A stretch of DNA of 64,000 nucleotides. Source: Carcharhinus longimanus. Lineage: Eukaryota. Positions 37,465 through 64,000 of this stretch are shown in pieces. The notes beneath the pieces are model-generated. The model searched no databases. It saw only the letters and a list, made by a program, of their open reading frames with translations, and was not told the origin of the DNA. The first letter of the stretch is position 1. Each line of letters begins with the position of its first letter. The DNA lies in contig JASCQW010000119.1 of the NCBI GenBank assembly GCA_030264375.1, positions 10,585,346-10,649,345 on the forward strand, given 5' to 3'. Made by a program: the position numbers and the translations under genes.

Positions 37465-37700
37465 GTTTGGAGCCTTGGTCCATGAACCAGAAATATATAA
37501 ATATATATGTATGTTTTGCAGAAACACAAAGCGATTCGGAGGGCAGTTGCAACAATGTTATTTCCTGGGAATTGTCATGCTCATCAAATATACTGTACAT
37601 TTTACCCGTATTTGCACAGTGCATTTGGGTGAATACATCTGGAGTGCAGAACCTTGGGCACTTGACCGAAGAAAACCTTCAATCATGTGATGCAGTTCAT
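37295..37700 (-). mobile_element. Possible Crypton/DUF3504 tyrosine-recombinase remnant (partial duplicate at 29100-29269)
   Basis: DHYGLRVKFNNGTALFSFTSTEKHSQDIQSHCPEFAL resembles NHSLRAT..TxLF....EK.IQ...GH.S..AL; frame open in both duplicated copies. Confidence 0.35.
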
Positions 37701-38373: not shown

Positions 38374-38400
38374 AAAAAAGGTTAAAAGATAAAGTGAAAG
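38374..38400 (+). CDS. 27-nt phase 1-1 micro-exon, (E)KRLKDKVK
   Basis: ttgttgttgttcccag|AAAAAAGGTTAAAAGATAAAGTGAAAG|gtctgt; paralog of the 48710 exon. Confidence 0.65.
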
Positions 38401-41129: not shown

Positions 41130-41458
41130 GGGGCGGCACGGTAGCACAGTGGTTAGCACAGTTGCTTCACAGCTCCAGGGATCTGGGTTTCATTCCCAGC
41201 TCGGGTCACTGTCTGTGCAGAGTCTGCACATTCTCCCCATGTCTGCATGGGTTTTCTCCAGGTGCTCCGGTTTCCTCCCACAGTCCAAAGATCCGCGGGT
41301 TAGGTGGATTGGCCAGGCTGAATTGCCCCCTAGTGTCCCGGGATGCGTAGTTCAGAGGGAGTAATGGGTAAAATGCGGAGATTGGGCGTGGGTGGGATTG
41401 TTGGCGATGCAGATTCGATGGGCCGAATGGCCTCTTTCAGCAGTGTAGGGTTTCTATG
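41130..41458 (+). mobile_element. Near full-length tRNA-derived SINE with CR1-type tail (HE1-like elasmobranch SINE architecture)
   Basis: ggggcggcacggtagcacagtggttagca (A box), gggtttcattccc (B box), tgcacattctccccatgtctgc core, gatgggccgaatggcct...ttctatg tail. Confidence 0.92.
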
Positions 41459-41899
41459 GATAATTCCTATGGTTTATATGGATATGAGATCTCCGCTGGT
41501 ACAGTTGCAATGCATCATATGCTCTCTTAGATTATTCTCTTGTATTTACGTAAATAGGCTCAAATTCATAGATATCGTTTAATTGTTGCATATAGCAGCA
41601 TCAAGCAATACAATTATACCGGTGATAAATGTAGTTTAAAATGTACGTGCACGGAATATCCGGCAGCTCCAAATAAAAGTTACAAAGACAGCACGTGAAA
41701 TTCCACCAAGCAACAGCCTATCAAATGGACCAACTTGTATCTGAATACACTGATTTGACCGAATTGAATGTTTGTAATTCATGGGCGACAGGTCGAAAAA
41801 TATTTCGATGACTAAGAAAAATGTTTACCTGCTTACCAATGACGGTTCTATAAAACCAACATATTATGCTGCTCCACAACATGATTATCTCTCTGTGAC

Positions 41900-42920
41900 A
41901 TCCAGTATTGCATATCGGAATGGAAGCTTATGGCTACTGGCGTTTCTCATGGATCACTGCTGGGATCACTGCTGTTTGTAATACAAATGTATAACTGATT
42001 TGGTGGAAATAAAACTGGTTTGATTAATACGTTTGTGGACAATACACAGGTTGCTGGAATTGCGATTCGCAATGAGGATAGTCATAAGATACGGCATGAT
42101 ATCGATAGATTGGAGACTTGGGTGTAGAGATGGCAGACCGAGTTTAATCTGGACAAATGTGAGGTAATGCGTTTTGGAATGTCTAATACAGGTGGGAAAT
42201 ATCTAGTAAATGTTAGAACACTTAAGTGTATTTGTAAGCAAATGGGTCTGGGTGACAAATACAAAGATCACTGGAATAGCAGCGAAGGTGGAGAATGTAG
42301 TCAAGAAGGCATAACCTACGCTTGCCTTCATTGGCTGGGGTATTGAGTTAAAAAATCGGCAAATCATATTGCAGTTTTATAGCACCCTAGTTCGGCCAAA
42401 CATAGAAAATTGTGTTCAATTTTGGTCGCCACAATACATGAAGGATGCGGAGGCTTTGGAGAAGTTACAGAAAATATTTTCCAAGATGTCGCCTGGTATG
42501 GAGGGCAATAGCTCTGAGGAGAGGTTGAAAAAAAAACTGATGTGTTCTGACCAGAAAGATGGAGGTTGATGGGCGAACTGACATTCGTCCATCAGGATTA
42601 TGAGGGACATGGACAGTACGGATATTAAAACGATATTTTTTTCCCCAGAGTAATAATCTTAAGGGTGAAGGGGCAAAGCTAAAAGGAGATGCAGGTGTAA
42701 GTTTGATTTTACACAGAGGGTTGTGAGTGACTGGAATTCGTGCCAGGCGTGAATTTGGAGCAGATACGACAATGATTGTTAAGGAGCGCCAGGACAAATA
42801 CATGACCAGGATGCGAGTGAAGTTACATTGCTTCCGGAAGGGTAGAGGTTTTAGTTCACACCGGTAACATGCTTGGAGGCCCGAAATGCCTGTTCCTGCG
42901 CTATAATTGTATTTGTTCTT
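41900..42920 (+). mobile_element. CR1 LINE 3' portion
   Basis: WQTEFNLDKCEVMRFG and LVRPNIENCVQFWSPQYMKDAEALEKLQK motifs, plus tail ggcccgaaatgcctgttcctgcgctataattgtatttgttct. Confidence 0.92.
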
Positions 42921-43123
42921 TGTTTTTTTTATCCTTAAATGCTGCACGTGGGATAACGCTGGTGAAGTCAATTTCCATAGACTAAAAATTAAATAGAGTA
43001 TACTCCTGAAACGGAAAGAAATTGAAACAACTGACAAAAGATCAGGGCAGCAACGATAGGCTGAATATTATTGTCATTTCAGAGGATTAGTTAACAGCTT
43101 CGTTTCATCCGTCTTCTCCCCAG

Positions 43124-43159
43124 AAATTGCGACTCTGAAGAAACGTCTGCAAGATGCAG
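43124..43159 (+). CDS. 36-nt phase 1-1 micro-exon, (E)IATLKKRLQDA
   Basis: ccgtcttctccccag|AAATTGCGACTCTGAAGAAACGTCTGCAAGATGCAG|gtcgga; 8 of 12 residues identical to the 3884 exon; donor is weak. Confidence 0.7.
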
Positions 43160-43649
43160 GTCGGACAAGAACAATAAAACATTTTTTTTTCTAAGATCCA
43201 ACTTTCCCTCATTTTTCTAAGCGGAACAGAACGGAGTACTTGGAGCTGGTTAGTTCAAGGACTGGCTTGTAACAATAACCGTGTTCCATACTTTGTTTAG
43301 TATATCAGTCACTCAGTGATAACGTAGTGTTGATTCGCCAACATGACTCGTCCCATTCCATGCAGTGCATTTTCAAATCGGTTTTCGTTAGATTGAACAT
43401 TTTTACGCTATGCAGAGAAGGAATGGGGGAAAATTGCCAAGTCAGAATGCAACGGTATTTAGGGCGCCATGTAGGGATCTTGATTTTCCAATGCGCTTAT
43501 TGCAAGATCAGGGCTTCAGAATGCTTTGTGAAATGCATTACCTGACGGTCAAGTTTGGGAGAAGTGGGCACATGAAATCATGAGTGAAGTGCTAGTCAAG
43601 CGGTCTGCCATTTTCATGAATGAGTAAACGTCTGTGTAGAATTTTTTCG

Positions 43650-44095
43650 TAGAACATAGAAACATCGACAACACAAACAGGCCGTTCGGCCCACAAGTTG
43701 CGCCGACGATATCCCGATCTACCAGGTTTACCTATAACCCTCATTTATATTAAGTCCAATGTACTCGTACAGAAGTCTCTTAAGAAAAAAAACTTATCGA
43801 ATTTGCCTCCACCACCACCGACGGCAGCGTATTCCACTTCCGCACTAACCTCTGAGTGAAAAACATACCCCTTATATGTCCTCTGGACCTACTCCCCAGC
43901 ATTTAAACCTGTGTCCTCTCGTAGCAACCAGTGCAGCCCTGGGGAAAAAAAAGCCTCTGAGAATCCGCCCAATCTATGCCTCTCAACATCTTATCCAATT
44001 CTATCAGGTCACCTCTCATCCTTCGTATCTCTAAGGAGAAAAAAACCAAGCTCCCTCAAAATATCCACATAAGGCATGACACCCGATCCATATGA
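43650..44095 (-). mobile_element. CR1 LINE 3' end
   Basis: tagaacatagaaacat tail, caggccgttcggcccac, ctctcaacatcttat...aggtcacctctc (reverse of RGDL.E..KM). Confidence 0.88.
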
Positions 44096-44775
44096 CCGAA
44101 AGCAAGTTTGACGACCAAATTCCCAAATGGAGGTGACACCTTTGTTACAATAGGCGGACACAGTTTTTGGGACCCAGCAGAAATGTTGCAAAACAAGAAG
44201 CAGAATGCAAACATTCTGAAAGCCTCTTCCTCTCCCCTAGATGCATTTCTTTTTATGTTCCGCCCAGCGAGATTGCTTGCACAAGCAAGTACACAAGCGA
44301 CTGACACTTGTGTACTGAAGTATCAAGGGGAACGTGATGTTGTTGCGCTCTCTCTCTCTTTATATTTCTTTCTTATTCCTTGCTCCCCTCCCTCCCCTCT
44401 CCTCCTGTCGTTCGATATGTTTATTCTTCACAATGTGTTTTCTGATGCCCAAAGAAACAACAATATTACAGTTAATTGGTGCATTTCAATTATCCATTGA
44501 CTATGAGCTGTTCGTGCAAGTTGTTGTTTAATACTGGATCTCTTAGTTTGTTCGATACTTCGCTTTGTATCGGTGTACACAATTGCTTACTGACATACGC
44601 ATAGATAACACGTAACATCTGTAAACCACGAATATGTAAGTTCGTACATGTCAATCGGCAGACATATCCATCTCTGTCTTTGGTTTAAATAAACAAGTCC
44701 TTCCTAGCGATCTGAAATGTCAACAGCTTCGAGAGATTTCAATATTGGGCAATATGTTTCTTCTATTGTAAACAG

Positions 44776-44808
44776 TAACAAAAGCAAAGCTCTCTGGATC
44801 AAAGCGTG
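44776..44808 (+). CDS. Possible 33-nt phase 1-1 micro-exon with GC donor, (V)TKAKLSGSKR
   Basis: tttcttctattgtaaacag|TAACAAAAG...AAGCGTG|gcaagt; fits phase and consensus GC donor but not the 27/36 rule. Confidence 0.3.
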
Positions 44809-47654
44809 GCAAGTACCCATTTAAATAACGGACGAGGCATTTGCGGACACTTGGCTTGCCCAGGGTTGGTTATCCGACTTTATTGCAACCGAAAAAAAGA
44901 TGTAATTCTAGGTGTGGGGCTGACTGTGGTTTGCCAAGATAATTTAAACATAATTCATGAAAAGACTGATTATGGGTTGCATTCTGCAACACTCACTTAA
45001 GTGTTGTATCAATTCCAAATATTCATCTTGAAAAATATAATTGTAGATCGATTAGATGTCGTGGTTGCAGTTTTAGGTTATACTTCCCTAAAGGACCGAG
45101 TCATCATCACGAGTAGACATATGTTTAATTCTGGGAGCGGCTTTCAGTATGTTGTAGGGTTGTTCTTTCTTTCAGAGTACCCGGTCCCAAAGTATAAATG
45201 CCCACTCTCCTCGAGTAGGAATACCTTTTGAAGAGGAGGTGGGACCACGACCCTTTTCTCTGTTGAGCGACTGAAATATATCGGCTGCTACTTTCATGGA
45301 AAGGTTGAACTAGGATGCACAATTCTACCAATGCAACAGCGCACAAGACAAGTTTCAATGTTATCTTAGAAAAGGATTTCATTTTAGTGTGTAATGTTTT
45401 TGATAAAGCCAGCATTCTTCTCCACATATGAATGCAGGTGCGCTAAATGGTGTTTTCTGTTTTGTTAATGTGACACCTTCCCCTGGCTGGGTGATAGGTA
45501 AAGAAAATCTTGTTGACGTTCTCCAGTTCAGCTAGAATCACATCGATGTAATAACGAATGTGGTTCAACAGACTGGCAGGGAGTGCATATGGCCCAAACG
45601 GAAATAACGCACCTCAAGGGTATATTAGTTGAATTACGTCGGAACATTTTGGCAATTGGTATACGTGTGGTGCATTACTTAATGTTGAAGCGTGTAATGT
45701 GATAAAACTCTGTATTAATTCACTGGACTTTGGCAATATTTTTGGTCAAATCCGCAGCTCTCCCATTAAGAGAGACGCTGCATTAATTGGTTTGCTGTGT
45801 GTGACAATGGACATTAATTTATCAGTGCTGTTGATCAAATTTGAAATTAAAACCTTGTGACAAAGTTCTCAAGAAGTGAGGATCGCACAACAATTTTAGT
45901 TCTGACAGTCAATTTCGCAGTAGGTAAAGTAGAAATTATCAGATATCCCGCCAAATCATGACTACACCGTTTGATGAATCAGACATGAAGGGCAGTATAG
46001 TTAACTATACTGCATCTTTTTTTTGTTTTGTTAATGTTATATGCACAGATCTGGAACCTGCTGATGAGTTTGTATCACGCAATTGAAAAAAAAAAGCTAG
46101 TCATAGATACATGAAGACAAATGACACAAAATATTCATCGCGCTTATTGGGGATGTGAAGTGGAACAACGGTTAAGTTTTCGCATGACATCTCTGTCCCT
46201 ATAAATTTGTTGTGTGCATTGTTCCAACAAAAATGCATTTTGGAAGACGACTAACATATGTTCATTGAATTGCCTTCGCCTCCGAAATTAATTTATTTAT
46301 CTGCAAAGCACCCATCTCGACAAACACACATCAACATGCAATACAGTTGTATTATCACATATCGCCCTAGCGCATGCGTCGATGACCAAACAATTGAAAT
46401 ACCACTACACCAGCATCACACTACTAGGCAATTGGGGAATCAGTAAAATAAGCCTGTTCCAATGAATTCTTATTCTGCATTCCATTTACGGAGCAGGTTA
46501 GAAATGCATATCTGATATAGTACATTTAATTAATCGTTAATATCTGTCGTCTCTGCTAAAATTGTTTGATGCTTTATGTTTTGGTTCATTAAAATCATAA
46601 CTTATTAATGTCAGCATAAATTCCACTTAGAAACACTCTCCTCAAACGATGTTATTTAATAAGTGCATTAAACTTGCCCTTCGACATTACTGACAATCCT
46701 GTCGATGGACAAGAAATTGTCTGACTTTATTTATGAATAAAATCATGCCGACTTTTTATCAGAATCCAACTTTTTTTTATTTTTCGAATGCCAAAATGTT
46801 AATTATGCTTGCAATTTCTATTAAAATGGAAATACTTAGCTGTGACAATGTTCTCAGTTGGAGCAAAGTTTATCGTGACATTAACTGGAGTGAAGACATG
46901 AAATTACGTTGGAAGCAATGTCACTTATCGTGATAAGCAGGGAATTGTTTGCAGACTCTAAAGGGGAGATGGGCATTGAAATAAAGGAAGTCTTCAGATT
47001 GAGCAACATTCAGTTGGACCAACATTTCCAGAGCTACAGTGCTAACATTTCTGTGACTGGTTAATTGCCTTTCGCTATGGTTGTGTAAAATACATACATG
47101 AAAATCATAAAGAATGGACGTCTTATTTCAGAGAATGAAGAAAAGCTGAATACACTGAAGGAATTAGGTGAGGAAGCAATCCTCGAGTGGCTTATTGAAA
47201 TATCTGTGCAGACCATTGTTGCACCGAATGTTTGGCACAATGAAACTAAATTTATCTTCAAATGATGTTCTCTTATATGCAAATTCGATGTAAAATTGTC
47301 ATTATCGGTGGAAACAGGGATAGCACCTATACCTGAATATATCCACACAGCATGGTTTTAGTCAGCATTGTAATGCCAACATCATAAAGACATGTTCTAC
47401 GTAATTGCAACGTCAATATCTATCTATCTCATATGCAGGCTGATCAAATTGTTTTTCAGACATCTGTTCTTGTATGGGAAGAAATGTCGTCCAGTAGATC
47501 TTCGAATGATTTTGGACAAAAGCAATCATGAGTAACTGACTACATTCCAACCCTACAACTTTTGGAAGTCCAATCATTTCAAGGCAACATTGGCAAAATT
47601 GTATTATTCTTAGTGGCAAGATGAGGCATCAATAATAAATTTGTTCTGGCATCA

Positions 47655-47968
47655 ATCAAAGAATCGCTACAGCACAGAAGAGGACGTTCGGCCCGTCGTG
47701 TCTGCATCCCCACAATCCACCCAATTCCTATCCCCGTGACCCTGATTGGCCCTGCTAATCCCTTGACACTTGTGTCAATCCAGCATTATCAGTCAATCTA
47801 ACCCGCATATTTTTGGACTGCGGGAGGAAACCGGAGCACCTGGTGGAAACCCATGCACATACGGGGAGAATTTGTAAAATCCAGGCAGGCTCTGACCCGA
47901 GGCTGGAGTAGAACCCGTGTCCCTGGCACTGTGAGGCAGCACTGATAAACGCCGTGCTACCGTGCCGC
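47655..47968 (-). mobile_element. tRNA-derived SINE
   Basis: gggaggaaaccggagcacc, acggggagaa, tccctggcactgtgaggcagcact...ccgtgctaccgtgccgcc (reverse head). Confidence 0.9.
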
Positions 47969-48709
47969 CTTTAAATAGTGACTCAGTAGGAGGAGTCAGC
48001 CACCAAAGTCATACCGCTAATTTCCATGCTTATGACTTTGGCCATATTCTGAGATACTGGGCTGCTGAGACTCTCATATATGCCAACTGTGGAGTTAACT
48101 AGAACAACCACTATCATGCTTGTGACGCAGTCGGTATTTTGAAAGATTGCTAGTCTCACGCCTTCACCACTTTTTCTGTCTTCAATAGTAAAACTGTCAC
48201 CTGGTCCATCAACACCTATGAATTTAGATGTTTTCTTTTTCTTCCCAAAGCCTTCATCTCTGCATACCTCTGACTTTTTTCTGCTTCACAATACATTGAA
48301 TTGTGAGCATGTTTGAAATTCTGGTATTTTCATAATTTCGCCTTTTAAAAGTTGCAAAAGTCTTGGTTTTGCCTTCAGCAGCCAAAAGCTGAAGATCATC
48401 TAGACCCTCTCAAGCATCTTTTTTATCGAAAAAAGCATCATATTTTCATCTAAGATGTTTCAAATCGACTCCCTCAGGAACGAACATGTATTCATTGGTT
48501 CAAATATTATCATTCTGCACTCGATCTCATTTTGTTTTTGGCAGACAGACGTGTGAAATGTCATTTGGATGCCGTTACGCATATAAAGTTTCGTTGATGC
48601 TATTTCATATTCAATGCATATTTCACCACAATCAAAAACCCGAGGGATGTTAGGTGTAATCGCCACACACATTTCATATTAATTTCTGTAACCTACTCTA
48701 AATGAACAG

Positions 48710-48736
48710 AAAAGGAAATTAAAGACAAAACGAAAG
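48710..48736 (+). CDS. 27-nt phase 1-1 micro-exon, (E)KEIKDKTK
   Basis: aatgaacag|AAAAGGAAATTAAAGACAAAACGAAAG|gtaact; 6 of 9 residues identical to the 38374 exon. Confidence 0.7.
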
Positions 48737-49538
48737 GTAACTATATTCTTAAGCGCTGTTTTCGGTTCTATTTTTTAAACTTGACTACAGTGTTTATAGT
48801 GAAGATTTGCTGTTGTTGTATAAAGCGTGCGTTTGGAAGGGTTCAGTTTATTTAATTTGCTTCATCCTAAATGTGAAACATAAATTCACAATGAAGCCTG
48901 ATGTCTCTGAAAAAAAAGACGTAGGACCCGTTTGCTGTAACTAATAAGAAATGTTGAAAACGAACTATCATTCTGGTTGGAACGAAATTCTGGTTAATCA
49001 GATTCAAAGCTTTCGTTCAAATTTTGCAACTTTTTCGATGATTGAATAGAATTAGTTCAAATTCCGCCACATAAAGATGACAAATGTAGGTATTTAACGT
49101 AGAAGATTTGCTCAAGATATGGATAGATTAATTCCAATGATGAAACACTTCCGAACACGAGAAACAAAGGCGGGCAAAACTCATTCAGACATGGCGCCAT
49201 CAATGATACTGAACATGTAAAATGCCGTGGACTTCCCGAAATCGCATCATCAAACGTTTCTTGGACTGGGGCCTCAATCGCAGATTGAATGTGAAACTGT
49301 TTGTGATCGAATTCACTGAAGGTTCATCAAAACACAACTGTGGAATTTGGAGCGCAACAAAAGTTAGTTGCAAGTCTCCAGTGGCATCGCCTGGACTCCA
49401 TCAATTCCTGACATTTTTCTGGTTGCATTTTTAATAATTTTGCTTTTAGAGCTTATATGTTGATAAAGTGCATTTTTTTCTGCGAGCATTTCCCGTTGAT
49501 TGTATGTCAACAATTGGTTTTGTTTGTTTTATCATCAG

Positions 49539-49574
49539 AACTGGATTCAATATCAGAAGAGCTGCACAAGAAAG
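49539..49574 (+). CDS. 36-nt phase 1-1 micro-exon, (E)LDSISEELHKK
   Basis: Duplicate of 29830 with both splice sites. Confidence 0.65.
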
Positions 49575-51220
49575 GTGCGATGGAAGTACCAAAGGAAATG
49601 CTTCAAATGAAGACCCCGACTATATTCGCGAACGGGAACGTGGAGATAACATATTTCGATTGAAACTTTGATCAGTACTTGAATCATGGAATCTACATCT
49701 ACATATATCGTTATACCCGAGTGACAGAGGATGCCGATTAGCCTCGACCAAAATCCTCACATGCAGGAATGTGACAAATCACGACATTGTATAATTAATA
49801 CATCGCTACTCTCGGTAACAATGGATTACTATAGTTTGGAATAAAGACTAGCTATTAAATCCATATTTCAGATGTATTCTGAGTTATCATATTTTATTAT
49901 TTTGTTCAAGTAATGGGTTACCAAATACATAGCTTTCCCACTGAAATAACGGTCTTGCTGAAAAAGATCGACGAGCACTTCCTCTTCTGAACTATAAACT
50001 TCTTCATTTCTCATCCTGAACTTCCGAGTGCTGCTTTACTACAGCTGGCCTGCCAGTGGTGCTTTCCCATTCTCAGGCTGTCCTGATTTTCTAGCCCTCA
50101 CTCAAAGTCAGTTTATCGAACCCCTGCTGAGTCATGACCTGTGTGCGCATCATGCGTAGAATGAGGATGACGTCTGACCTGCGAAACATTACAAATGCTA
50201 TATTTCCCATCTGGTAAATATATTCAAATTTGTGCGGACACCGCTGAGATTTTGGAAACATTGGTCATTTGTAAATGCGAGCTTCCATAACAGTTAAGCG
50301 GTAGGAACATTAACGTGCAATTTGGAGTGACATGCAGGTAAAATCGACGAAGGTTGACACATTTTATTTCCTGATCACCCGTTTCACTATACGTTTGGAG
50401 TTTTATATTTTGTAAAACCGATAGCACATTCCCGTTTTTTTTTCATTATTATCAATTAAACTTGAACATCCCCAGCTCCTATCGAGAGATGCAATGTTCG
50501 CGTATCATTAGCCCAACGATAGTCAAGTGAAATTACTACTTTCTACGAATTCACAAAAAAGACATTCGTTGATCACATTGAAGTTGTTTGTTTTATATTT
50601 GAACGAAACAAATTCAGCAGAATATGAGTCAATTTGCATGTGCTAACATGCTATTCAAATCTCCTTCACTGTGGGATTGCATATGAGTAAATCCATTGCT
50701 TAAGAATGGTCCCATTCCTCGTTAAACAAACAACACATAACAAAGGAGTAGTCGGTATTAAATTAGAATTGTAACAGAAAAGAAAATCTTGTCACGATTA
50801 TACTGATGCGTGGGACTTGTACTAATTTTCTGAAAGCGGCTGCAGACTCCATGATGTTCTCTCCTTTTCTGAAAGTGCTGTCAAACATTGTATTTCGGAA
50901 TATTGCAACTGTAAATATTAAAAATATACATTACTTGCTCCTTTGTTACATTGTTAATCTAGTTAAATAGGAATTACGCCAAGAATGATGCATCCCATAT
51001 TTTAAATGGATTCACGTCAAATATCCCAATTCGCAATTTCCAAAACTGTTCATTACGTAAACATGAACTTCAACGATTTCTGAAACAGTGGCAACAAATA
51101 ATCAAGATCGACCAATTGATGGCATACAGGGAATTGGAACGGTAATATAGAATTTGAGGAGTAAGATTTCCCGTTTTCTTTGTTTCAAATGTACGCTAAA
51201 ACATATTGCATTTTCAACAG

Positions 51221-51247
51221 ATAAACAGCTACGAGCAAAACGTTTTG
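51221..51247 (+). CDS. 27-nt phase 1-1 micro-exon, (D)KQLRAKRF
   Basis: ttttcaacag|ATAAACAGCTACGAGCAAAACGTTTTG|gtaaga; duplicate of 31527. Confidence 0.7.
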
Positions 51248-52426
51248 GTAAGAGCCTACGATCGTTGATTGACTAGCAGGCTTATCTGCCAATGGATACT
51301 ACAGTCAAGCGAAAGCTTGACAATCTGGACTTTGCTTACTCTTCCTTTGTCTGTGTATGTTTTATCTGGATGCTCCGTTTTCGTCAAGCAATCCAAACAT
51401 TGGAAGATTAGGCGGAATACCCATGCAAAAATGCCCGCTCACGTCCGCGGAACTGTGGATTTGATGTATTAACGCGGCGCACGCGTGGAGTTCACGGGTA
51501 GGCTGGGCTTGCGCCTGGGAAAGATGATCTGTGGGAGAAAGGGTGCAGACCTGATGAGGAAATTGACTCTTTTAGCGCTTTAGCTGTTGTATGACAGTTT
51601 TACCATATTATATCAAAGAAACGCAAACCCTGACACCAGAAATATATCAAGTGCTACAAAAATTAAGTCCTTTGACCACACTAACCAAATAGATTGAAAA
51701 TTGAAACTTTTATTTCATTCCATCTTCTTATATCATCATATTAAGTGTATATTCAAAAGGACAACATTCCCTGCAAATACCGAAACCAAGGATGAAGTGA
51801 TTCTTATAAGAAGGGCTACGTGGGGAGACCAGAGTGGAGTGGAGAATCATGCAGGTTGCCTCTCGACGTAGAAGAGGGCGCGAGAGATATAGATTTGTCC
51901 CTGAAATTGGTGTAGATGACCAGGCATAAACATGCAATGGTTCAACGAGAGAGAGTGCCGTAAATGACACGGCAGGGGAGATTTGTATGATAGGAATTAC
52001 AGAGGATGAATAAACATGGAAAGCGCGGTTGCTTGGGCTGGTCGACAATCATAATGCACCTAAAATCTGGAGCAAAAATGGAAAATGCTGGGATTCCAGA
52101 GCAGTTCCGGCAGCATCCGTGGAGAGGAAACAACGTTAACGCCTCGAGTCTGGAAGATCTTTTGTCAACATTGCTTACTTTCCTTTTTTCCAGATATATA
52201 TTAGAATGTATATATGTATATATATATATATGAGAAACGATATTTTCACAAATGGGATTTCTAATACTATCGGAGTCAAATGAATGTTGTGTAAATTCAG
52301 AACGTTTTCAACAGCAATTACTGATACGTTTTGTTCCGTCGATACCGATTGATATAGATTGATATGGATTTTTTTTCACAAATTCAGCGTTGTTTTATCA
52401 ATTCGTTCGATGCACCGTGTCTCCAG

Positions 52427-52542
52427 AACTTCAAGAACTCAAAGAAAATGGCATAGAATATGCAGAATTGACGATATTTGACTTGAGACAACATAGACAA
52501 TACGAGCAAAACCAGATTAAACTGCATTACGAGTTTTTGTGA
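52427..52542 (+). CDS. Last coding exon with ITIM-consensus motifs: (E)LQELKENGIEYAELTIFDLRQHRQYEQNQIKLHYEFL*
   Basis: gtgtctccag acceptor, phase-1 start continuing the heptad (ELQELK), IEYAEL and LHYEFL fit (I/V/L/S)xYxx(L/V), TGA at 52540-52542. Confidence 0.75.
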
Positions 52543-52642
52543 GCGATAGATTTGAGGAATATAAAACTTCTGGAGGTCCTTCTTTCTCGCACTCCCAGGA
52601 TGTGCATGGACAACAGCAGTCCAACTATATCGGGAACTCCAA

Positions 52643-52648
52643 AATAAA
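52643..52648 (+). promoter_or_regulatory. Candidate polyadenylation signal AATAAA
   Basis: 100 nt after the stop of the ITIM exon and followed by T/G-rich gttttgtattg; the hexamer is common in AT-rich DNA. Confidence 0.4.
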
Positions 52649-52859
52649 CTAGTTTTGTATTGCATAACAGGTAACGGTCCAAGATGTGATTCATGTCGAG
52701 GAAATTTCATGTTTGCAGGCAAACATTTTGATTCTCGTCGGCAGTTGCCCGAAATTAAACAAAGTCAAGCCATATTCAAATAATCGGCAAGTGGATTTGA
52801 AAAACGATTCACACAAAATGTGAATGATATTCGGTGAGAAGGCAAATCCCCTTCAAAAG

Positions 52860-54425
52860 GGCCTTGAATGAGTTGTAGGTCCTGTACCCACTTGCCTCGG
52901 CACCCTCCGCTTTCTGCACACTCTCTCTGGAGCCTGCTCTCCCACCTCCTGGCCCTCAGCGGCATCCTTCTGCCCTCCTTCCTGAGGGTCTGGTGGTGGC
53001 TCCTCGTGTGGTGTTCGTTCCACGTCCGCCACCCTCTGAGCCACAGCCGCCTCCTCCTTTTCCTTCTCCACCACCCCTGCCATCAACATGGTCTGCTCCA
53101 GGTCAAGCAAACTGGGATCCATCTGCACAGTAAGGTTTGGAAAACGCCTAGAATGACGGATTATGACCACTGACTGCACAGATCCAGCACCAGCCCAATC
53201 CCGCACTTGAGCCAGCATTCCCACTTGATGGAGCTGGCAACCCCCCTCACAGTCTATGGTGCCACGCGTTGCTCGATTATGGTTTGTAAAATACCGATCA
53301 TGACAATTGCTTGCGCGGATCATGCAGGTCAGTGTGTAGAAATTGGGAATGCCTACCCTTGAGCCATTGCCATGTATGCAACTGCAGCATCTGTTACATG
53401 CATGTGTTGCTGGTCAGCGTCACAGGGCAGGGAGACAATGCATAGAAGAACCCGATGCTTGTGCAGTGACGGCAGATTCCATGAAGTCCATGTCTGAACC
53501 TTTGCAACACGGCCTGGAGCAGCAGCTGCTTCACCCGGTTAGGCCTTAATCAGCACATGGTGTACTCCTTCCCCACCCCGGAACACCAGCACTTGTTAGA
53601 GTCCGGGATCACACTCAGTGGAAACACAATGCCACTGCAATGTGCTTACAGGGTGGGGGAGGGGAGCAGGTGCCCTCGAGGCTGCTGCGAACAGTCAGCC
53701 ACAGCCTTGTATGGAGAAGTAATGGAGGGGGAAGGGAGAGCGGGAGCCCTCGAGGCTGCTTCCCATAATCAACCTCAGCGTTGCTTGGAGAGGGGCTGGA
53801 GGGTGGCGTGGAGCGGGAGCCTTCAAGGCTGCTTCCCACAGTCAGCCTCAGCGCTGCTTGGAGGGGGGAAGGGCATGCGACGAACTTCACCAGGGAGGTG
53901 TGAGGAAATGGAAGCCTCGCCGATGCCAATCCCCCCAACATTCCCCCCCCCCCCCCCTCCCCGCCCCACTCCCACACCGAGATGTCACAAATCAATAGGC
54001 CAAAACCTGAAAGAAGCAGGAGGAAGGCTACCGGGCATATCCAGGGCCTGCAGCAACCACCCCCGTGCTCTGCGGGCAGTACTTACTTCCTCAAGTCTGT
54101 TCAAAGCTGACAGGTCAGGTTGCCACGTTTCAATACCTGTTCTGGTTCGCGCCAAAATTATAGCCATCGAAGAGTCGGGAGACGCTGACGTTGGCGGAGA
54201 TTGCAGTGTGTAATTCACTAATGACATGCAAAAGCATGTAAATTTGTGTTAAACACCGGCGCGCCGTTTTTCAGCCACTGCTCGATGACGACGTTTTTTT
54301 CTCCGGCTGAAAGATGCTCACGGACAAAAAAAAACTGGCGGGGGACCCGCGAAATGGTCAGCACGGGCATCTCCCTGCCGGATCGGACAGAAAAGTGGAG
54401 GGCGCAGACGGGAGAATCGGAGCCC
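52860..54425 (-). mobile_element. GC-rich PIF/Harbinger-like DNA transposon remnant
   Basis: Abrupt GC island; TIR-like end gggagaatcggagccc at about 54410-54425; minus-strand acidic then basic peptide (EEPPPDPQE...ERVCRKRRVPR) resembles Harbinger transposase N-termini; no intact DDE domain seen. Confidence 0.5.
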
Positions 54426-54479
54426 TCATTTCTATCCCTTACCCGCTGTAGCACTTGCTAAACGCCTGCCCACATTTCA

Positions 54480-55950
54480 TCCACTTAACTATGCAATGTT
54501 CGCCATTTCCTGATTGAGACGTCATTTGCAAGGTTAATGATACTACTGTATACAAGCAGAATATTTTCCGTGTCTGTTTTCTAATGAAGTATGTTTTAAT
54601 CTTGGGATCTTTCTTGTGCAGCTCTACTAATATTCCAGAAATAAAAATGACAGTTCAATTCATCCCCTGTTTATTATAGTTCTTTTGCAACTTTACGGTC
54701 AAAATTCTTTTCTGATAATTCAAATTTAACTTCTTTATCTTCACTATTTGATTCCTCCTTTTGTTTTAACACATGGCTTTGTGATCTTGTTACCACATAA
54801 TCGGGAAAATCCCATGATATGCACCCATTAAAAACAAAGTCCTTTCACTTTCCACTGTCTTTCCAATCGCAGGGAGCATAGCTGCCACCTGTTACCCAAT
54901 TACATTGTTACCAAATACAAACTGTATAATTAGATAACAATTTCTCCATTACTCCTACAGCCGCTTCAATATTTTTCAGTGGCCTTTCTGACCTCATCTT
55001 ATATAGTGGAACATTGCGCGGCCCATGCTGAATTTCACATATTAACACCTTTCCTGCAATATTCTTCTAAATTGCATCATTCCTCATCTCACACTATCAA
55101 AGGTTGACTTCCCCCGTATCTCTTACAAATAAACTTATTTACGTACTCCTGTGGGACGTATGAGTTAACTTTACCGAATCAGGTGAAGTGATTCAAGAGA
55201 TCTGTCACTTTCTTATCAACAAACCCCTGTCGAAGCTAACACACTTTTCATTTCTTTAACTTCAAATCGAGTTTAATATCCCGCATTGATAATCCACATT
55301 GGCTTATCCAGCTTTATGACCTCTGCCTTCCCAGTGATTTCCTTAACCCACCAATATTGCCAATTTGTTTGTCCTAATTTACTGCAGTGAAAACATCTCA
55401 CTTTAAAAAAAAATACTTACTCTTCAAGTCTCCCGTGTTTCCTTTGTTACCTGTGATGTTCATCTTCAATGTCTCCAAGAGATCGCCGTGTACTTTACCA
55501 CCTACAAATTTCACGTTTTCCCAGCTGATGCCCCAAGCATGCTGATACTGAATCTGAAATCCAATCTTTTATTTAAAAAGTAATACAACATCATCTGTAA
55601 TGTCTGCTGTTAACCTTGCAGTTTCAACGCTCTGCTCTTCCACGCGAGTCCTCACGAAGTCAAAAAGTGACTCTTTAAACTTCTCCAAAAAAAGTATTTC
55701 ACGAAAAACATATGGTCCATTTTCAATGTCCTTTCCCAACTATTTATAAACTTGTTTGATCCATTCAAATTATGTGTACATTTGACCACTTTGTTTGCTT
55801 AGATTTCTGAAGAGCGTGTCTGTGGGCTTCTGGCACTAGTTCATGTGCACATAAAACATTTTTCACCTCCTGCTAATCGACAGGTAAATCCGCTGACCGT
55901 GTTGGAAATGCATCGCTCGCTCTCCCTTCCAACTTCGTTTAAATCAATAA
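54480..55950 (-). mobile_element. Old decayed CR1-like ORF2 fragments
   Basis: aaggttgacttcccc (reverse of GxFNL), atattgccaatttg (cf. WxxANI), catcatctgtaa; heavily decayed. Confidence 0.45.
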
Positions 55951-56572
55951 TAAGCAGTGGGCTTTACCACTTCATGTGCTTAGCTACATTCGCTAACGAA
56001 ATAAAAAGAAAACTTCTACACCCTTCTCATAAAAGCTTGGCAACACTTGGAATTTAATAGATCCTCACCAGGTTTTTGATTGTGACACTGTTCCTCTTCC
56101 TCACATTCCGAATCACGTCTCCTATATTGTACTTTAACCTTAAGCTCCGTAATTTTAAATTAATGTTCACTTTTCATTGCCAGTCTGCAGAATTCAAAGC
56201 ATCTCTTTTGTTTCCAGCACCTGAAGTTCGAGCATTTTCTTTCTTTTTTTGCATTTTGTTTCTCTTTCTCTCTCTCTCTCTATGGTTTTTTTTTCTGCTA
56301 CACATGCCAACTCTTCTCTTTCTTTTGCTGATCTCTATCATTTGCTTCGAATTCAATCTGCTTGACTTTTTTTTCACATGCAAGCAGTTTTATTTTTAAT
56401 TGAACTCTAGATGTTTCCTATCATCTCGACTGTGCTTCTGGCTATGTTGACTGCTGATCAATTGCTATAATTATCTCCGTCTTCCAGCGTGCTTGTCACT
56501 TCAAAAATTGTTTTTCATTCAGTAAAGCGAGCCAGAGAGAAAGGGAGAACGAGAGAGAGAGGGATTGTGTAC

Positions 56573-56573
<1 letters not shown>

Positions 56574-56623
<50 letters not shown>

Positions 56624-56632
56624 CCATAGATA
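56574..56632. repeat. (GATA)n tetranucleotide microsatellite
   Basis: Directly visible. Confidence 0.97.
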
Positions 56633-57774
56633 GGTAGAGACAGAGAGAGAATGCTTTCTTCCACCTAAACCAACTTTTTTTGTGGAAGAGAATATTGTTT
56701 CCAGGCAGCACCTGACCTGTCAGTCATGCACTATCAAGCATTTCCAAATGAATTATAACCTTCCAGGGTTCTGTCCTAGCCCAGTTTAAAAAAACCCATA
56801 TTCATCGTTATTCTTCTGTAATAATTATAGGACCCTGGCTACTCATCTAACGGTGGCAGAATAAAACGGTAGACGCAGTTCGAAAAAATAAATAAATAAA
56901 TGTAATCATTTTTTCTTAAAAGCATAGTATCACCACACAATACTTTACAACAGTCTTCCACGAATTGGAAATTGTTAAAAGTAATTTGAAAGCTTTGCAG
57001 CAAATTTATTGTGAATTTGTGGAAATGGCGCAGATAGAGATTTAGAATACAAATCAGAAAGCTATAGATGGATGACAGAGCTGCAAGCATTATTATTTCC
57101 ACATCGTCCGAGTCAACACCTGCCAGCAAGAACAACGCTGTCCATATGTTGAGTGCAGTTCCCAAGTTTGGGAACTAGTACTGACTGACGTCTGCTTTTA
57201 ATATTGGAATTGGCAGTCACATTAGAAATTTCACTGTTCTGCTGAAGCGTTTATATATGTTATATCGGGCAAAGAGTGCCGATCCACATGACTGAATTCT
57301 GTAATTCGGTAAGAAATTTAATGCTCAACTCTGCATGGAAGTAAACATGAAAGATCAATTCCCTGAAGTTTGACTGATAAACAGCGTATCCTCATTTAGA
57401 ATAGAGTAAGTGATTAAATTCAAATAAAACACCAGCTATCTAAGAGGCCAACTAAACTGTTGACGATAGAGCATATTGCGATACCAATGCGGTTTAAGAT
57501 CAGTCAGGTGCATTCAATCTCTCTCATATTCGAGAATATCGTTTCCTGGTTCATGCGATGAGATAATTCATTTATATGGAGAATCCAGTATCGATAATAA
57601 CTCATATTTTCCAGATCATTTGAATTGGAAACGTGACCCCTGCTCTATGTCATCCAATGGCAGGCCAGACAGATTAAAACAAAGAATGTGACACCGTCAC
57701 TGTCTTCATTTCAATTAAACAAGATCTCCCGTCACTTAGAACGGCGTTTTGTACCTACACCAATGAACGTAAGC

Positions 57775-59400
57775 ACACACGAAGAACATCGATTGGGAGC
57801 AGCAATAGGCCACCAGACCCCTGGAAATTACTTTGCCACTTATTAAGATTTGTTCTTTCTTCATCGGTTCTATTCAAGAAAAAACAAACCATTTCTTCGA
57901 AAGGGAAAGTGGATTGGAATAACATTTACCACCGAATTATCTATACCGTTTCGTCTTGTACAGAGTTGCTCATGGGCCCTTCCACTGTTTGTCCTCTTTC
58001 AGTTCTATAGTATTACATTTGCAATGATATGGACTTAAAGGCTTAGAAAATCTCTTTATTTGAAAGTACATTGCAAGTTTGTAACACACCATGATGAGCT
58101 GCCAAATAGAAATACGCCTTGCTGCTGTTTTGATGTTGATAATCTCAGAGGTTCGCTTCCTGCGGAGACATTTGTTCATGCGTGTTTTGTACGGCCAGGT
58201 CGGTCCATTTCATACGTTGTTAATGAGTAGTTTCAGTTGTCCCTCCGTTCTCGTGTTCAAGTTCCAGAAGTTCATCTGAAGCAGGTCCCCAGATAATGAC
58301 TCCAGCCTCTCCACTTCCACTCCCCTATTTGTCCCTCGAATTCCACATATGCGTCGAGTCCAAATAACTTGCGATTTCCCGGCCGAGCAACAGCGCATCC
58401 ACATGTACCTTGAAAGAACAACCAATAATCTCAATCGCAGCGTTATCTGAGAGATGGAGAGTCACCACCTTGAGAAACAAACAAGTTTACCTTTGTTTAA
58501 AAACGCAACCCCTAATTTTACTTCATTGTTCCCTAGTAAAGGGACAAATACACATGATGGAATATCATTTTTCACGGCTGCTTTGGCGATCACTTTCAGG
58601 AAGTCATGCACTTCAATCTAGATGTTCTCTATCCAACTTATCTACAGGGGAAACAAGACGAGTCCGATCATTCTTTTCAGATTTCAACAAACTGCCCTTT
58701 ACAGCTATCAATTTAATATTTCTCATCTGGACCGTCTCCAGCACAGTTACATTGATCTGAATATAAAGAGGGAAACACTGCACACTTTAGTTCAGATGTG
58801 GTCTGGTCATTGCCCTCTTATAAGTGAAGCATACCTATTCCGCTCTGCGACGTCTTTTGTCTGTTCCAGAACTTAATTTCCGACTAATCTTTACTTAATT
58901 TGTAAAGTGTGCTGTGGTGCCTTCGCTTCCTTAATTTAAACCATCCATATAGTTTCGAAAATGCAGAGGGTCCAGCGCACAATCTTTTGCACCCTTATTG
59001 GCTACTTCCTGCCAATTGAAAGAAAAAGTCAATTTTTGCTTGCTCGTTTCTTTCATTTCAGCCCACAAATAACAAAAGCATGCTAAGCTATTAAACCCGC
59101 GTAATGACTTGTAATTCGTGGAATTATATTTTGATGCAATTTGACGTATGTTTTCATGAAGCTAAGCCATAGTATACAACAGTCTCTACTCCACCCCCAC
59201 GCAAGTTGTTCCTTTCTACTAAAGTAACAAATTATTCAAACGCGATTTATTTCGCAACTAAAAAACGATTCTTACAGATCATCCAAAGATGTCCGAAGTG
59301 GCCAGCAATAACTTGGTTAGAGACACCTTCCCCAAGACAGGCGATTTACAAACTCTCATTGACTTCCTTTCGTTAAGCTCCCTCTTATTTTTAGTATGAA
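57775..59400 (-). mobile_element. Decayed CR1 3' region(s)
   Basis: gaagaacat...ggagcagcaataggcca tail, aaacactgcacac...tggtc (reverse of PxLxxCVQ) and related motifs. Confidence 0.6.
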
Positions 59401-60959
59401 TGGAACATTATATCTAATTTCGATTCTAAATGAAATTTTCAGGAATACAGATAAATTAACATTAATATCCTGACGGTTTCATTTTATTCACATTTCGAGA
59501 CTTTACGGTGAATCCCGTGTTGGCCAGCATAATTGACAACTCTCAGCTCCATACGTTGGCTCAATATCGTCCATGCGATCACTGCAATTTCAGAAAGCGT
59601 CTCCGATACTTCTACCTCATGATTTCCACCGCAAAATGGTAGATTTTTTTGCATACTCTAATTTGAAGCCATAAGGAAACATGTTATGTTCGCTTTACGT
59701 CTGATGGTCTTGTTTACCCGCCATTCTATCTCTCCATCTTGAAAGAAAGTCATGAAATCCGCTTGCTCGCATCCATTCCAAATATGTAGAGGCACACTTG
59801 TTGCATTTTTTTTTATTTTCCAAACTTGCTTCCTCTCGCACAGCAATTAATGTAATTTTAATATGGCAGGTACGTCTCCGGAATGGGTGTCAGATCGCAA
59901 TTAAATACACCAATGCATCCAACTGGCATTTTCGTGACAAACTGTTCTTTATGCTTGAGCAAAATGCAAATGGTATACTGGAGGGGGAAAACCAAAATCC
60001 AGCTTGACCAAATTCGGGAAGTTGAGCTTCTTGCAATATACCAAACTGAATATATTGCCGGCTATAACCTCCTGGACAGCCACTGTTGGGCATGGGGTCC
60101 ACGCCATCAATTAATCACGGACAAATACAGGTTAAAGAATATTATTTGATTCCAAAATTATATACCGAAAATAAGGTAATTTGACCCGGCCTGTCTTCAA
60201 TGGCAACGCAGACATATGTGTTCAACATATTTACAACTGGTACATGAGAGAAGCATAGCAATGATTCATTACTTGAAAAAAATGGTCTAGATTATTAACT
60301 GCTATTTTATTTTCATGTCTAACGGTTGTTAATGCATAATCAGTGGACACTCAATGCACACGAGAGAAATCTTGATGAATTAAGTTGAACGACGGAATAC
60401 CATCTAATCAGGAGATATTTCATGCCGCTAGCAGGGAGAATATAATTCAATAATTCAATCTAACCATTTGTGTCATTTTGTACAAAGTGGCTCGCAAATA
60501 ATTCGCCTGATTCATTCGCACTTGTTCTCCAGGAGATGAAAATTGCACCTCCACGATATAGTGAATAATTTTAGTGCACCAAATGTTTGTATTTGGAAAT
60601 TACGATTTTTCCAAGAACGACTTCCCCGAGAGGCAACTAAATTAAAGTGTTCACATTTACTCAATAAAACCTGTTACCTGTGAACAGTTATTTTAATCTT
60701 GTGCCGTCCATTACGTAATCGTGTTTACTTTCAACTTCTGTTGTACATCCGTTTAATATGCAGTTTCGAATGTTTCATCAACAATGAATCTCAGACCAGT
60801 GTTTTACTGAAGAGACAACGAGGTTTTGCATTCTGGGCATAATACTGTTCTTACGATATTTTATGCTCAGCTCTGGAATTGCCACTAACGAAAGTGAGAG
60901 GGGATTGTCGTTTGCCCGACTGCAGCTGCACTGCTTTGGGGATCCTACTTCTGATTTGT

Positions 60960-61245
60960 ACCAGCTATCAATCTAATAGTTCTCACCCGGAACGTCTCCA
61001 GCATATTTGCGTTTATCTAAATTTAAGGAGGCAAACACTACACATTTTTATCCTGATGTGCTCTGATCATTGCCCTCCGATAGGTGATGCATGCTTATAC
61101 CGCTCTGCAAGGTCCTTTATCCGTTCCAGAACTTAATTTCCGATTAATCTTTACTTAAACTGTAAAGTTTGTTGTGGTGCCCTCGCTTCCACAATTTATA
61201 TCATCCATATAATTTCGAAAATGCAGAGAGCCCAGCACACAATTA
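60960..61245 (-). repeat. CR1-derived fragment closely similar to 58700-58985
   Basis: Shared cagctatcaat...cgtctccagca...gttccagaacttaatttccga...tttcgaaaatgcagag. Confidence 0.8.
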
Positions 61246-61583
61246 CAGTGCAAAAAACACAATTCCATTATTCCAGGTCATGAAGCTCGTAATACAAGTC
61301 GTTTTTTGTTAATAGCGATGCTGATGCAACAAGCAGTCCTGCCGCCTTCCAATTGCATTGTTTAATCCGTTGTCCATTCAGCTGGGCCCAATCGATCCCT
61401 CGACACAAAATAAAAGATGAACATAGGTTTCTTCCGCCAAGCGGCGATAATGTAATTGCGCAATTCAACGAAGCCGAAATTGATTTTATGCTTCTTAATT
61501 CCTGTTTGAGTTATTTGATTTCCTGGTCTGCAAATTGGAATTTTGTTTTAACTTTACAGTAGAAAAATACAACTCATTTTTAG

Positions 61584-61623
61584 ATAAAGTACTTTGAAAA
61601 TCTGAAGCCTGAAGACAACAGAA
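61584..61623 (+). pseudogene. Frameshifted pseudo-exon related to the 62256 exon
   Basis: tttttag|ATAAAGTACTT(T)GAAAATCTGAAGCCTGAAGACAACAGAA|gtgaaa; 40 nt; removing one T gives DKVLENLKPEDNR vs DEVLPEDNK. Confidence 0.35.
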
Positions 61624-62255
61624 GTGAAAAAGGCATTATAGGAATTTTTCATGTCATTTTCAATGTTTTATCATATCACTAAGTGTCTTTTTTTATCAAG
61701 CCAGGGAGTGTAAGATTGGGACAATTGTAACTGGAAAGAACAACAACAGCTTCCTGCTTGCAGCCATGTCAAAGCAACATGGTAACACTCAATAGGATAT
61801 TTTGTTGATGTTGCTTCAGGGATATATTTTGGCTGAAAACAGCCTGTTGCAATATCTTAAATCAGTGTCACTAAAAGTAATGCTTTAAATTTGGTGATAT
61901 ATGTGAGCCATGGATGTAATGCTTATGCATGACTATGTCACATCGGATGATGCGTAAAATCCTTATTTTCTCGACAGCTCTTTAAACCTAGTTGTTATTT
62001 TCAGTTCACTGCTTTAGGAATTAAAACTGAAATGTTCACACTCGGAGGCAAATGTTTCCTATCTCAGCTCAGCTGACAATGAAGTCCGATGTATGCATCA
62101 CACTTCCCCGTTACATTGATTCTGCAATGGGACCTCCAGAATCAAAACAAAAACAAAGCAAATTGGACATGGAGTGCGAAACGGTGTTTCAGGGAAAACG
62201 TAGCTTGTTCTCCTTCCTGCTATCAATCATTGTAATCTCGTTTTGTGCTCAACAG

Positions 62256-62282
62256 ATGAAGTGCTGCCTGAAGATAACAAAG
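62256..62282 (+). CDS. 27-nt phase 1-1 micro-exon, (D)EVLPEDNK
   Basis: ttttgtgctcaacag|ATGAAGTGCTGCCTGAAGATAACAAAG|gtgggt; Leu at position 4 as in the rest of the 27-nt class. Confidence 0.5.
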
Positions 62283-64000
62283 GTGGGTAATACATTTAGT
62301 GTATATTTAAAATATTGATTATAAAACTATAATAAGAAAACGCTAAATAAATGCATTTAAGAATTAAATAATAGCAAGAGGCGTTGAAGAAAATTAAACC
62401 CTGTACTCCAGTGAAAAAAATAATCGTCGAAATTGGCCCAGACAAGGCATGGTAGTCATCGTTGTTCTTCCTATCGAAGGAAGGATGCAATTTCATTAGA
62501 AAAGAAAATGCAAGTTATGAGCAGATTTTTCGAAGAAGAACTGGACTTTTTATTCTTCAGCAAGCAGAAACATGAGCCAGAATTTAACTGAAACAGATGC
62601 AGGAGTAAACGTGAAACGTTCGTGATTGGGCTGATGAATGATTAGTAAAACAATTGGCAGACAAAACTCAACTTCAAAAATAGAGAATGCAAACTTCTAC
62701 CTTTCACATTTCATGGCATTACCATCGTCAAAATAAAAAAAAGTCCACATTTCTTCTTTGGATGTGGCAGTCTCTGATTGGGTGAATAACTTCAATTTAT
62801 CTTGAAGTGAGAATATTTTATCAGTCAACTACTCTGCTGCGGAGCGGTAGTCATAGACCTTTCTGATTTATATGGAGGTCAAAACAGGTAAGGGAGGCAT
62901 ATTTCGTTCCCCAATAGGCGTTAGTGAATGCAAGTCTTATGGACGAGAATCAACCAAGATTTCTTCGTCAAATTCCAGATTTATTTTACGCTCAAATGTC
63001 AAGCATCCCTATTGTTCTGTAGGCCAGCGATGATATCACTATGCCACCAAATTCAGTTACAATCAATTAGAAATGTAACTACACCCGGGTCTTCACCAAC
63101 AGCAAGAAATTTGGTGTGATCTAGCACAACACAATAAAATCACTATGCATCAGAACCTTGGCTTCAAATCAGTCGTAATTAAACTTTCAGCCAGATCCAT
63201 CACATTTTGTTCTTCCAAATCAAAGGTGCGCTGAGCAAATTTCTAACAATTCTTGTGGCTGTCACTCGGTTCATCACCCATGCTCTTTGTTGACAATTTT
63301 ACAATTGCAAAATGCCCCACCAAAACTTACAAATCTTATTTTACCTTATCTGCCAGCAATCAAATTGTACCGAGCAGGAAGGCCAATGTAGCTAGCAGAT
63401 TGGTCAACTAAACGCGTGATTTTTAGAAGAGAAGCCAAAAGCACTCCTGATTTATATGCACCGCGCCTCCCTTTAATTCACCTGTCCAGAAACCTGGCAC
63501 GTCTTTCAGAAGTTATTGTAAATTCACAGTCCTGAAGTTAATAGAGAAATTGGCTGCCTACGCACTGTCAAGGACACTGATGAATTTCGCCAAATAAAAT
63601 ATTGTGTCTGTTGAATCCAGAGCATATTCCGCAAAATCTTCAGATATATCGGCCAATACAAACTGAAATGAAGAGACATGTTTTTACTGAGATAATGCCG
63701 AAGCATAGATCGATTGTTGAGTTCCGAAATTTATCAGCCGTCATCACCTCCTGGTGTGTTGGGTTGAATATGAAATAATGGGCATGATACAGAAGCTGAT
63801 TTGATGGAATTCTGTGGAATAGTGCCCGAAGTACGATATTGAATAGAATAGCAAGGAATTCACGATTCCCAGATGGTCTTCTCATCATCCTGACACCTTC
63901 GATTTCTATTTTTTTCGATGTGGTCAAGGTTGGAGGGGGGAGGGGAGTCGATCTCTTGGTGGATCTTAGCGGTTGTTTAAACCACGGGGGTAGTCGTTGT

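Follow-up and report, generated by a model that had tools for sequence, protein, structure and literature searches.

Paired ITIM-consensus motifs behind a donor-less mini-exon in a predicted coiled-coil–B30.2 gene of Carcharhinus longimanus

Introduction

Among the described genes closest to the locus considered here are the chicken BG genes. They lack a B30.2 domain and combine an IgV and a transmembrane exon with 13–36 exons that measure 21 or 24 nt; the claim of an inhibitory function for the BG1 ITIM reportedly goes back to Goto 2009. One study describes BG tails of 13–36 mini-exons, a BG1 ITIM that lies in a fixed read-through (formerly unspliced) intron among the heptad mini-exons, and six other BG genes with intronic ITIMs followed almost at once by a stop (PMC4046983). 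Frequent truncation of BG transcripts by read-through is reported in a second study (PMC5938342). The ITIM consensus used here, S/I/V/LxYxxI/V/L, follows a third, according to which SHP1 favours a medium nonpolar residue at pY+1 and disfavours glutamate at that position (PMC8631942).

Butyrophilins and BTNL proteins follow an Ig–Ig–TM–heptads–B30.2 plan. BTLA, the Siglecs, CD300LF, SIRP-alpha and PECAM1 carry two consensus motifs near the C-terminus; dual-ITIM receptors of this kind have Ig ectodomains, a transmembrane helix and short membrane-near tails. In cartilaginous fish, the Callorhinchus milii protein XP_042192744.1 ('nuclear-pore anchor-like', 1,697 aa) has a short hydrophobic N-terminus, a giant coiled coil and a SPRY domain with no Ig domain, and shorter shark, skate and ray models labelled 'TRIM39/58/69-like' or 'A33-like' combine a coiled coil with SPRY and lack Ig, RING and B-box (five of five scanned). 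The database entries for these relatives are for the most part short models with TRIM names that mislead, and among the papers listed by a literature search, which most subscription papers lay beyond, none described the shark family.

The locus analysed here resembles the BG genes in its long coiled coil, spread over many tiny exons of variable number, and in a mini-exon whose intron would be read through into ITIMs and then a stop, as in the six BG genes, or which is a fixed ITIM exon, as in BG1. It differs from them in having more than 150 predicted exons, mainly of 27 or 36 nt, over about 1 Mb, a B30.2 end, and neither an Ig nor a transmembrane exon where sequence is available. If expressed, the feature would work like that of BG1, while the gene itself is not a BG. 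A preliminary description had been unable to match the architecture to a described gene; the BG genes, as PMC4046983 presents them, do match it in kind. The butyrophilin-like affinity noted there has held up, with heptad mini-exons preceding a terminal B30.2 exon and, as in butyrophilins, 21-nt exons grouped together towards the array's 5' end. The rod is nevertheless far longer than in butyrophilins, no Ig or transmembrane exon was found, the B30.2 domain falls in a separate clade and the BTN-type IgC exons of this genome lie mainly on other contigs. With BTLA, the Siglecs, CD300LF, SIRP-alpha and PECAM1 the putative tail shares two consensus motifs near its C-terminus and, presumably, a similar tyrosine spacing; their Ig ectodomain, transmembrane helix and short tail were not found for the shark candidate.

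The window is a stretch of 64,000 nt of C. longimanus DNA; coordinates outside 1–64000 extend its numbering along the contig (G000:C119), negative values lying upstream. We think it probable, if with some hesitation, that the stretch at 52427 is a decayed, skipped mini-exon of a predicted coiled-coil–B30.2 gene of about 1 Mb, and that its ITIM-like motifs are likely to be a chance product of read-through. The weights given to this and three other readings were assigned by judgement.

The tyrosine-motif stretch

After the CAG at 52424–52426, the phase-1 frame reads ELQELKENG-IEYAEL-TIFDLRQH-RQYEQN-QIK-LHYEFL-stop, which makes a donor-less mini-exon of the 36-nt class that runs on to TGA (52427..52542, plus strand; 38 codons including the split first codon). 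Re-reading of the sequence placed every reported element where it had been said to lie, all on the plus strand: IEYAEL (52453..52470), with alanine at pY+1; RQYEQN (52495..52512), whose middle tyrosine is outside the ITIM consensus; LHYEFL (52522..52539), which has glutamate at pY+1 and abuts the stop; TGA (52540–52542); and AATAAA (52643..52648), a candidate intronic polyadenylation signal. IEYAEL and LHYEFL do both fit the consensus, as had been proposed. The tyrosine codons start at 52459, 52501 and 52528, with 23 codons from first to last. The intron upstream of 52427 contains a third consensus match, LFYQFV, again in this frame.

No N gap occurs between 37032 and 66315. Sequencing run X1 matches 52323–52790 without any differing letter and without useful splice joints; since it also covers introns and repeats it behaves as DNA, and it may be the sample behind the assembly itself. 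Its depth over the 52427 exon, 5.8, is lower, yet inside the scatter of neighbouring contigs.

The host gene

About 18 AG/GT-bounded phase 1-1 exons of 27–42 nt, encoding K/E/L-rich peptides, are predicted in the window. The 27-nt exon before the stretch (KQLRAKRF, 51221..51247, plus strand) has a duplicate at 31527 in which AG and GT are retained. Other predicted exons of 27, 30, 36 or 42 nt on the same strand start at 1963, 3884, 14318, 18384, 19737, 26153, 29830, 31527, 33647, 35011, 38374, 38514, 38919, 43124, 47132, 48710 and 49539, the series extending to 49574. Positions 1–52400 hold 16–18 sense mini-exon candidates versus 0–1 antisense, and the coiled-coil mini-exon context earlier ascribed to 52427 is confirmed by the array around it.

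The array does not stop at 52427. The next mini-exon, EVLPEDNK (62256..62282, plus strand; 27 nt), has strong splice sites, further ones lie from 0.7 to 20.7 kb beyond the window end, and the interval between 52650 and 95700 contains 12–15 sense candidates versus none in the antisense control. An intact phase-1 B30.2 (PRY-SPRY) exon stands at 95733–96253 (L011:1733-2253; plus strand), 31.7–32.3 kb beyond the window end and about 43 kb downstream of the tyrosine motifs; it matches Pfam SPRY with an E value of 4.3e-17, PRY falling below the cut-off, and has an AATAAA 230 nt behind it. The stretch had been labelled a last exon, which is probably wrong: the array continues and most likely ends in B30.2, so the 52427 tail would be at best an alternative exit. 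This continuation into a B30.2 exon supports the reading as a dead exon.

The mini-exons, all of phase 1-1, run from about −900 kb to +85 kb (about 1 Mb, more than 150 predicted exons). Over the whole locus 153–190 candidates were found in sense versus 1–12 in antisense orientation, a contrast to be read with the training of the exon model on sense-strand seeds in mind; it too favours a skipped exon within a longer array. Among the 151 exons kept, 65 are of 27 nt, 68 of 36 nt and five of 21 nt, and the 27- and 36-nt classes often alternate. When 150 predicted exons are joined, they give 1,559 residues without a stop, with a hydrophobic periodicity of 3.5–3.6 (power 27–29 versus 8–11 in one shuffle), from which a rod of at least 1,500 aa is predicted. 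We infer that the whole array is one transcription unit.

A recent tandem duplication on the plus strand comprises units at about 17958–33212 and 33213–52404 with 8–10% substitutions, and its similarity stops about 20 nt before the 52427 acceptor, so that the 52427 exon was not copied. Assembly gaps lie inside this duplication (17958–52404) at 29333 and 36933; X1 contigs contain a second, diverged copy of parts of 45.9–50.4 kb, which suggests that a gap conceals part of every unit and that the exon count is underestimated. In an older duplication 38514–51247 corresponds to 70278–79960, and four of nine exons have their colinear partner as the best of 996 sites.

B30.2 relatives

At least six similar B30.2 genes, the host among them, are clustered within 5 Mb. 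On the same contig, within 6.3–11.3 Mb, lie the five B30.2 paralogues closest to it, and the three whose flanks were examined all carry similar arrays. The B30.2 domain of a neighbouring paralogue is 76% identical to a catshark protein, and the named matches of the subfamily all come from sharks, rays or a chimaera. In a tree of 29 rows, chosen from matches to the family profile, the host-type B30.2 domains and their chondrichthyan relatives, among them XP_042192744.1, group together with 100/100 support, separate from the TRIM and butyrophilin domains that the tree contains. The gene belongs to a cartilaginous-fish coiled-coil–B30.2 clade, marked by the 27/36-nt phase 1-1 array and the clade-specific B30.2 domain. 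XP_042192744.1 and similar models are counted as relatives rather than orthologues because their B30.2 identity is only 34%.

RING and B-box are absent from all five relatives scanned and the RING pattern had no match in the scanned region from −1,100 to −475 kb, so the features of a TRIM E3 ligase were not found. The B30.2 exon alone gave no match at 1e-25 in a protein search, and Atlas look-ups with two relatives returned generic SPRY or helix matches only. Some SynGAP-like shark and ray models (P0030-P0033, P0042-P0046) have a C-terminal PRY-SPRY in three species, either a real fusion or a recurrent annotation join.

A mini-exon without a donor

How a dead exon could persist here follows from the design of the array, which would grow by tandem duplication. 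Since every exon is phase 1-1 and has a length divisible by three, an exon whose splice site is lost can drop out of the transcript with the reading frame intact, and dead exons would therefore accumulate; 16 donor-less exon-like sites were found in sense versus three in antisense orientation, the 52427 site being one of the 16, and this excess supports the reading. The spliceosome would join 51247 to 62256, bypassing 52427; translation would then yield a helical rod of 1,500 aa or more, capped by B30.2, the rod likely acting as a dimeric spacer that presents a ligand-binding head, and the tyrosine tail would be produced seldom if at all. Should this be correct, the lasting result is the host gene itself, about 1 Mb long and with more than 150 frame-preserving mini-exons.

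That 52427 began as an array exon is suggested by its first 12 residues, whose score against the 36-nt-class profile is equalled by a fraction of 2.2e-4 of 13,412 null AG sites, and by its position after a 27-nt exon, the usual slot for a 36-nt one. Residues 1–7 all score positively against the profile, residues 8–12 mostly negatively, and no GT is present at +27, +36 or +39. The end of the profile match after residue 7 argues for decay, as does the acceptor, which by the array matrix scores −2.7 (the members' 5th percentile is −0.5) and has an intronic part below that of all 151 members; this comparison is biased, the 151 members having been picked with the same matrix. By a generic acceptor model the site is ordinary, with 47 of the 151 members ranking below it, which weakens the case.

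Two GT donors lie farther downstream. The first, CAG|GTAACG (52671..52676, plus strand), scores 2.1, against a 5th percentile of 1.6 and a first quartile of 3.5 among the members, and paired with the 52427 acceptor it would give a stop-containing cassette exon of 244 nt; the second, at 52834, scores 4.8, within the members' range, and is inside a high-copy repeat. A GC donor at 52451, which would give a 24-nt exon, scores only 0.7 and was rejected. The exon-free stretch downstream of 52427 is among the longest gap-free intervals of the locus; it is also compatible with a gene boundary and to that extent counts against a skipped exon, as does the fact that all the exons are predictions.

Homologues of the tail

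At both DNA and protein level the tail is single-copy in the 2.68-Gb genome among the first-look candidates that were scored. A 50-aa query made of the tail and 13 upstream intronic codons found no protein match at E 10, with three candidates, which is weak evidence, and in the final 100 kb of two paralogues no rod-like start carries two ITIMs (0/19 and 0/29). The relatives end in SPRY in five of five cases scanned, and the dual-ITIM tail stands at the end of none of those checked. A candidate paralogous slot at 81706 reads ELKDIRSKWSM-stop (11 codons, weak sites, no tyrosine). Its match of 17/27 nt is tied best of 818 sites and falls outside the top four of 996 when flanks are included, so that its homology with 52427 is suggestive only. 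These observations agree with a dead exon, although the weakness of the 81706 match tempers the argument.

tBLASTn look-alikes at −679, −779, −852 and −1,099 kb were judged on inspection to be chance. The idea, formed by eye, that the tail is a remnant of a repeat, which we take to be CR1-type, was dropped when a profile of six local copies found no match at 52400–52700; the same profile scores the copy at 81.7 kb at 59 bits.

Chance

A single ITIM consensus calls for caution, being common in A/T-rich introns: 797 of the 19,124 ORF-terminal 29-aa windows of the locus (4%) have one. Only 18 have two or more, the 52427 stretch included, and its tail is the most protein-like of these. Among 60,000 random read-throughs, 47 showed at least two ITIMs, 14 of them at a spacing of 18–32 and two also with AATAAA within 150 nt; AATAAA alone occurs in 9.5% of 110-nt background windows. 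Scaled by the 16 donor-less sites, the chance for one gene comes to roughly 1% to 0.05%, according to how many criteria are imposed after the fact, and the lower figure rests on two simulated events. In six frames of 1.26 Mb there are four ITIM pairs, this one included, that end at most 10 aa from a stop and have AATAAA behind. Read-through of the 151 intact mini-exons gave three cases with one ITIM and none with two, and among the 16 donor-less sites 52427 alone carries any.

The combination of motif pair, spacing and AATAAA is uncommon, though not unique, and chance is not a comfortable explanation. The low joint figure, the position of 52427 as the sole ITIM carrier among the 16 orphans and the most protein-like of the 18 windows, and the favoured alanine at pY+1 of IEYAEL all weaken the interpretation as a dead exon. 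Against this, the composition of the tail is only within the top 14% of ORF ends and the intronic LFYQFV stands in the same frame, both of which support it, and a scan across many such genes will also yield some rare coincidences.

Alternative readings and topology

The strongest alternative, possible though doubtful, is that selection maintains 52427 as a genuine terminal exon, either alternative or gene-ending, its donor lost, the intron captured and the transcript polyadenylated at 52643. The rod would then exchange B30.2 for two ITIMs and, once phosphorylated, recruit SHP-1/SHP-2, as is reported for BG1, a part of the proposal that we hold just as tentatively. It draws on the low joint chance of motif pair, spacing and AATAAA, on a good first motif in IEYAEL and an exon start in the expected slot, and on the direct precedent of chicken BG1 (PMC4046983 and PMC5938342). 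Short family members of 230–460 aa exist, so that the downstream exons and B30.2 could form a separate gene; the candidate start exon of such a gene, at 59844, was rejected as not above background (10 sense versus nine antisense full-Kozak candidates), and no hydrophobic start exon was seen in 52650–62300.

The topology of the product speaks against the terminal-exon reading. The sequenced part of 1.26 Mb yielded neither an Ig nor a transmembrane exon; about 10% of the locus is gap, with 98.7 kb of N in 158 gaps. A butyrophilin profile run over 30,875 ORFs matched the B30.2 exon alone, none of 140 head-region ORFs matches an Ig family, and none of 24 PF22705 matches falls in the cluster at 6–12 Mb of C119. 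A V-set family search, in which 150 of 928 candidates were scored, is not decisive. The 150 joined exons contain no transmembrane segment (maximum 19-residue hydropathy 0.66). About 1,440 rod residues would precede the motifs; with a coiled-coil rise of 0.15 nm per residue this corresponds to roughly 200 nm and, unless the rod folds back, would put the motifs far from membrane-bound Src kinases. The weak acceptor, the glutamate at pY+1 of the second motif and the want of a tail homologue or paralogous copy also stand against it. Here the claim of an inhibitory receptor goes unsupported: the motifs are real in the DNA and the architecture has a precedent, while a receptor function of the putative tail is unproven.

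Were the exit real, signalling motifs would arise repeatedly by intron capture in heptad mini-exon tails, in chicken BG1 and, independently, in sharks, and a head-swapping switch would be open to test. A convergent, BG1-style device at a far larger scale, in which one megabase gene tips its rod with either B30.2 or a dual ITIM, is conceivable by this analogy, though we would not expect it. It would have a rod of about 1,500 residues switch between ligand binding and SHP-1/2 recruitment, possibly without an Ig ectodomain.

The N-termini of the relatives hint at several topologies. Two of the six checked begin with 13 hydrophobic residues and four do not. In the chimaera XP_042192744.1 RAKRRKK comes after these residues, an arrangement that would suit an N-terminal anchor and a rod in the cytosol and so favours a signalling tail. 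The skate relative XP_055510696.1 starts with a signal-peptide-like segment, and at the 5' end of the array, at −890.6 kb, a candidate signal-peptide exon combines ATG, a hydrophobic 20-mer and a strong phase-1 donor. Cytosolic, anchored and secreted products may all be considered. The skate N-terminus and the candidate signal-peptide exon would suit a second alternative, in which the exon is used as terminal, truncating the rod and removing B30.2, and the tyrosines are idle because the protein is secreted or beyond the reach of kinases. We regard it as unlikely. Truncation by intron read-through is indeed common in BG transcripts, according to PMC5938342, but the signal-exon candidate is ambiguous, its hydrophobic codons doubling as the polypyrimidine tract before one of the two strong AG|GT sites of the locus, and four of the six relatives have no hydrophobic N-terminus.

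Very improbable, finally, is a poison cassette from the 52427 acceptor to the donor at 52671 (or 52834), which would send the transcript to nonsense-mediated decay, the stop at 52540 lying more than 100 nt before the junction: both donors score within the members' range and the nearer follows AATAAA at 22 nt, a position from which bound U1 could suppress cleavage, but the acceptor and that donor are weak and 52834 is in a high-copy repeat.

Other features of the locus

At −788 to −761 kb (G000:C119 about 9.797–9.824 Mb), near the 5' end of the otherwise 27/36-nt array, five or six phase 1-1 exons of 21 nt form a block just 3' of gaps of 6.5 and 2.5 kb that could hide a transmembrane or Ig exon; butyrophilins would place their transmembrane exon just upstream of such a block.

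A high-copy repeat at 52800–54300, with a depth of up to 755-fold, starts about 150 nt past the AATAAA; it includes a 74-nt tandem repeat at 53655–53863, and four of its ORFs have no Pfam match. Broken coding-like frames on the minus strand at 55270–56390 are perhaps a decayed retroelement ORF or a pseudogene.

Only two strong back-to-back AG|GT sites occur in the megabase, at −890489 (L112) and −180179. Both are candidate recursive splice sites, and that at −890489 could alternatively be the end of the signal-peptide exon.

CpG observed/expected is 0.65–0.77 in every 100-kb bin from −1,100 kb to +164 kb, at 39–41% GC, whereas nine loci of 3.5 kb elsewhere gave 0.26–0.83. The region may be a large domain of weak methylation.

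The sense array, which starts at about −900 kb, stands head to head with a minus-strand array running from −915 kb towards a B30.2 exon at 9.086 Mb. The intervening stretch of about 15 kb includes short gaps and shows no Ig or transmembrane exon. Together the two arrays span about 9.09–10.68 Mb of G000:C119 (−1,500 kb to +96 kb in window numbering).
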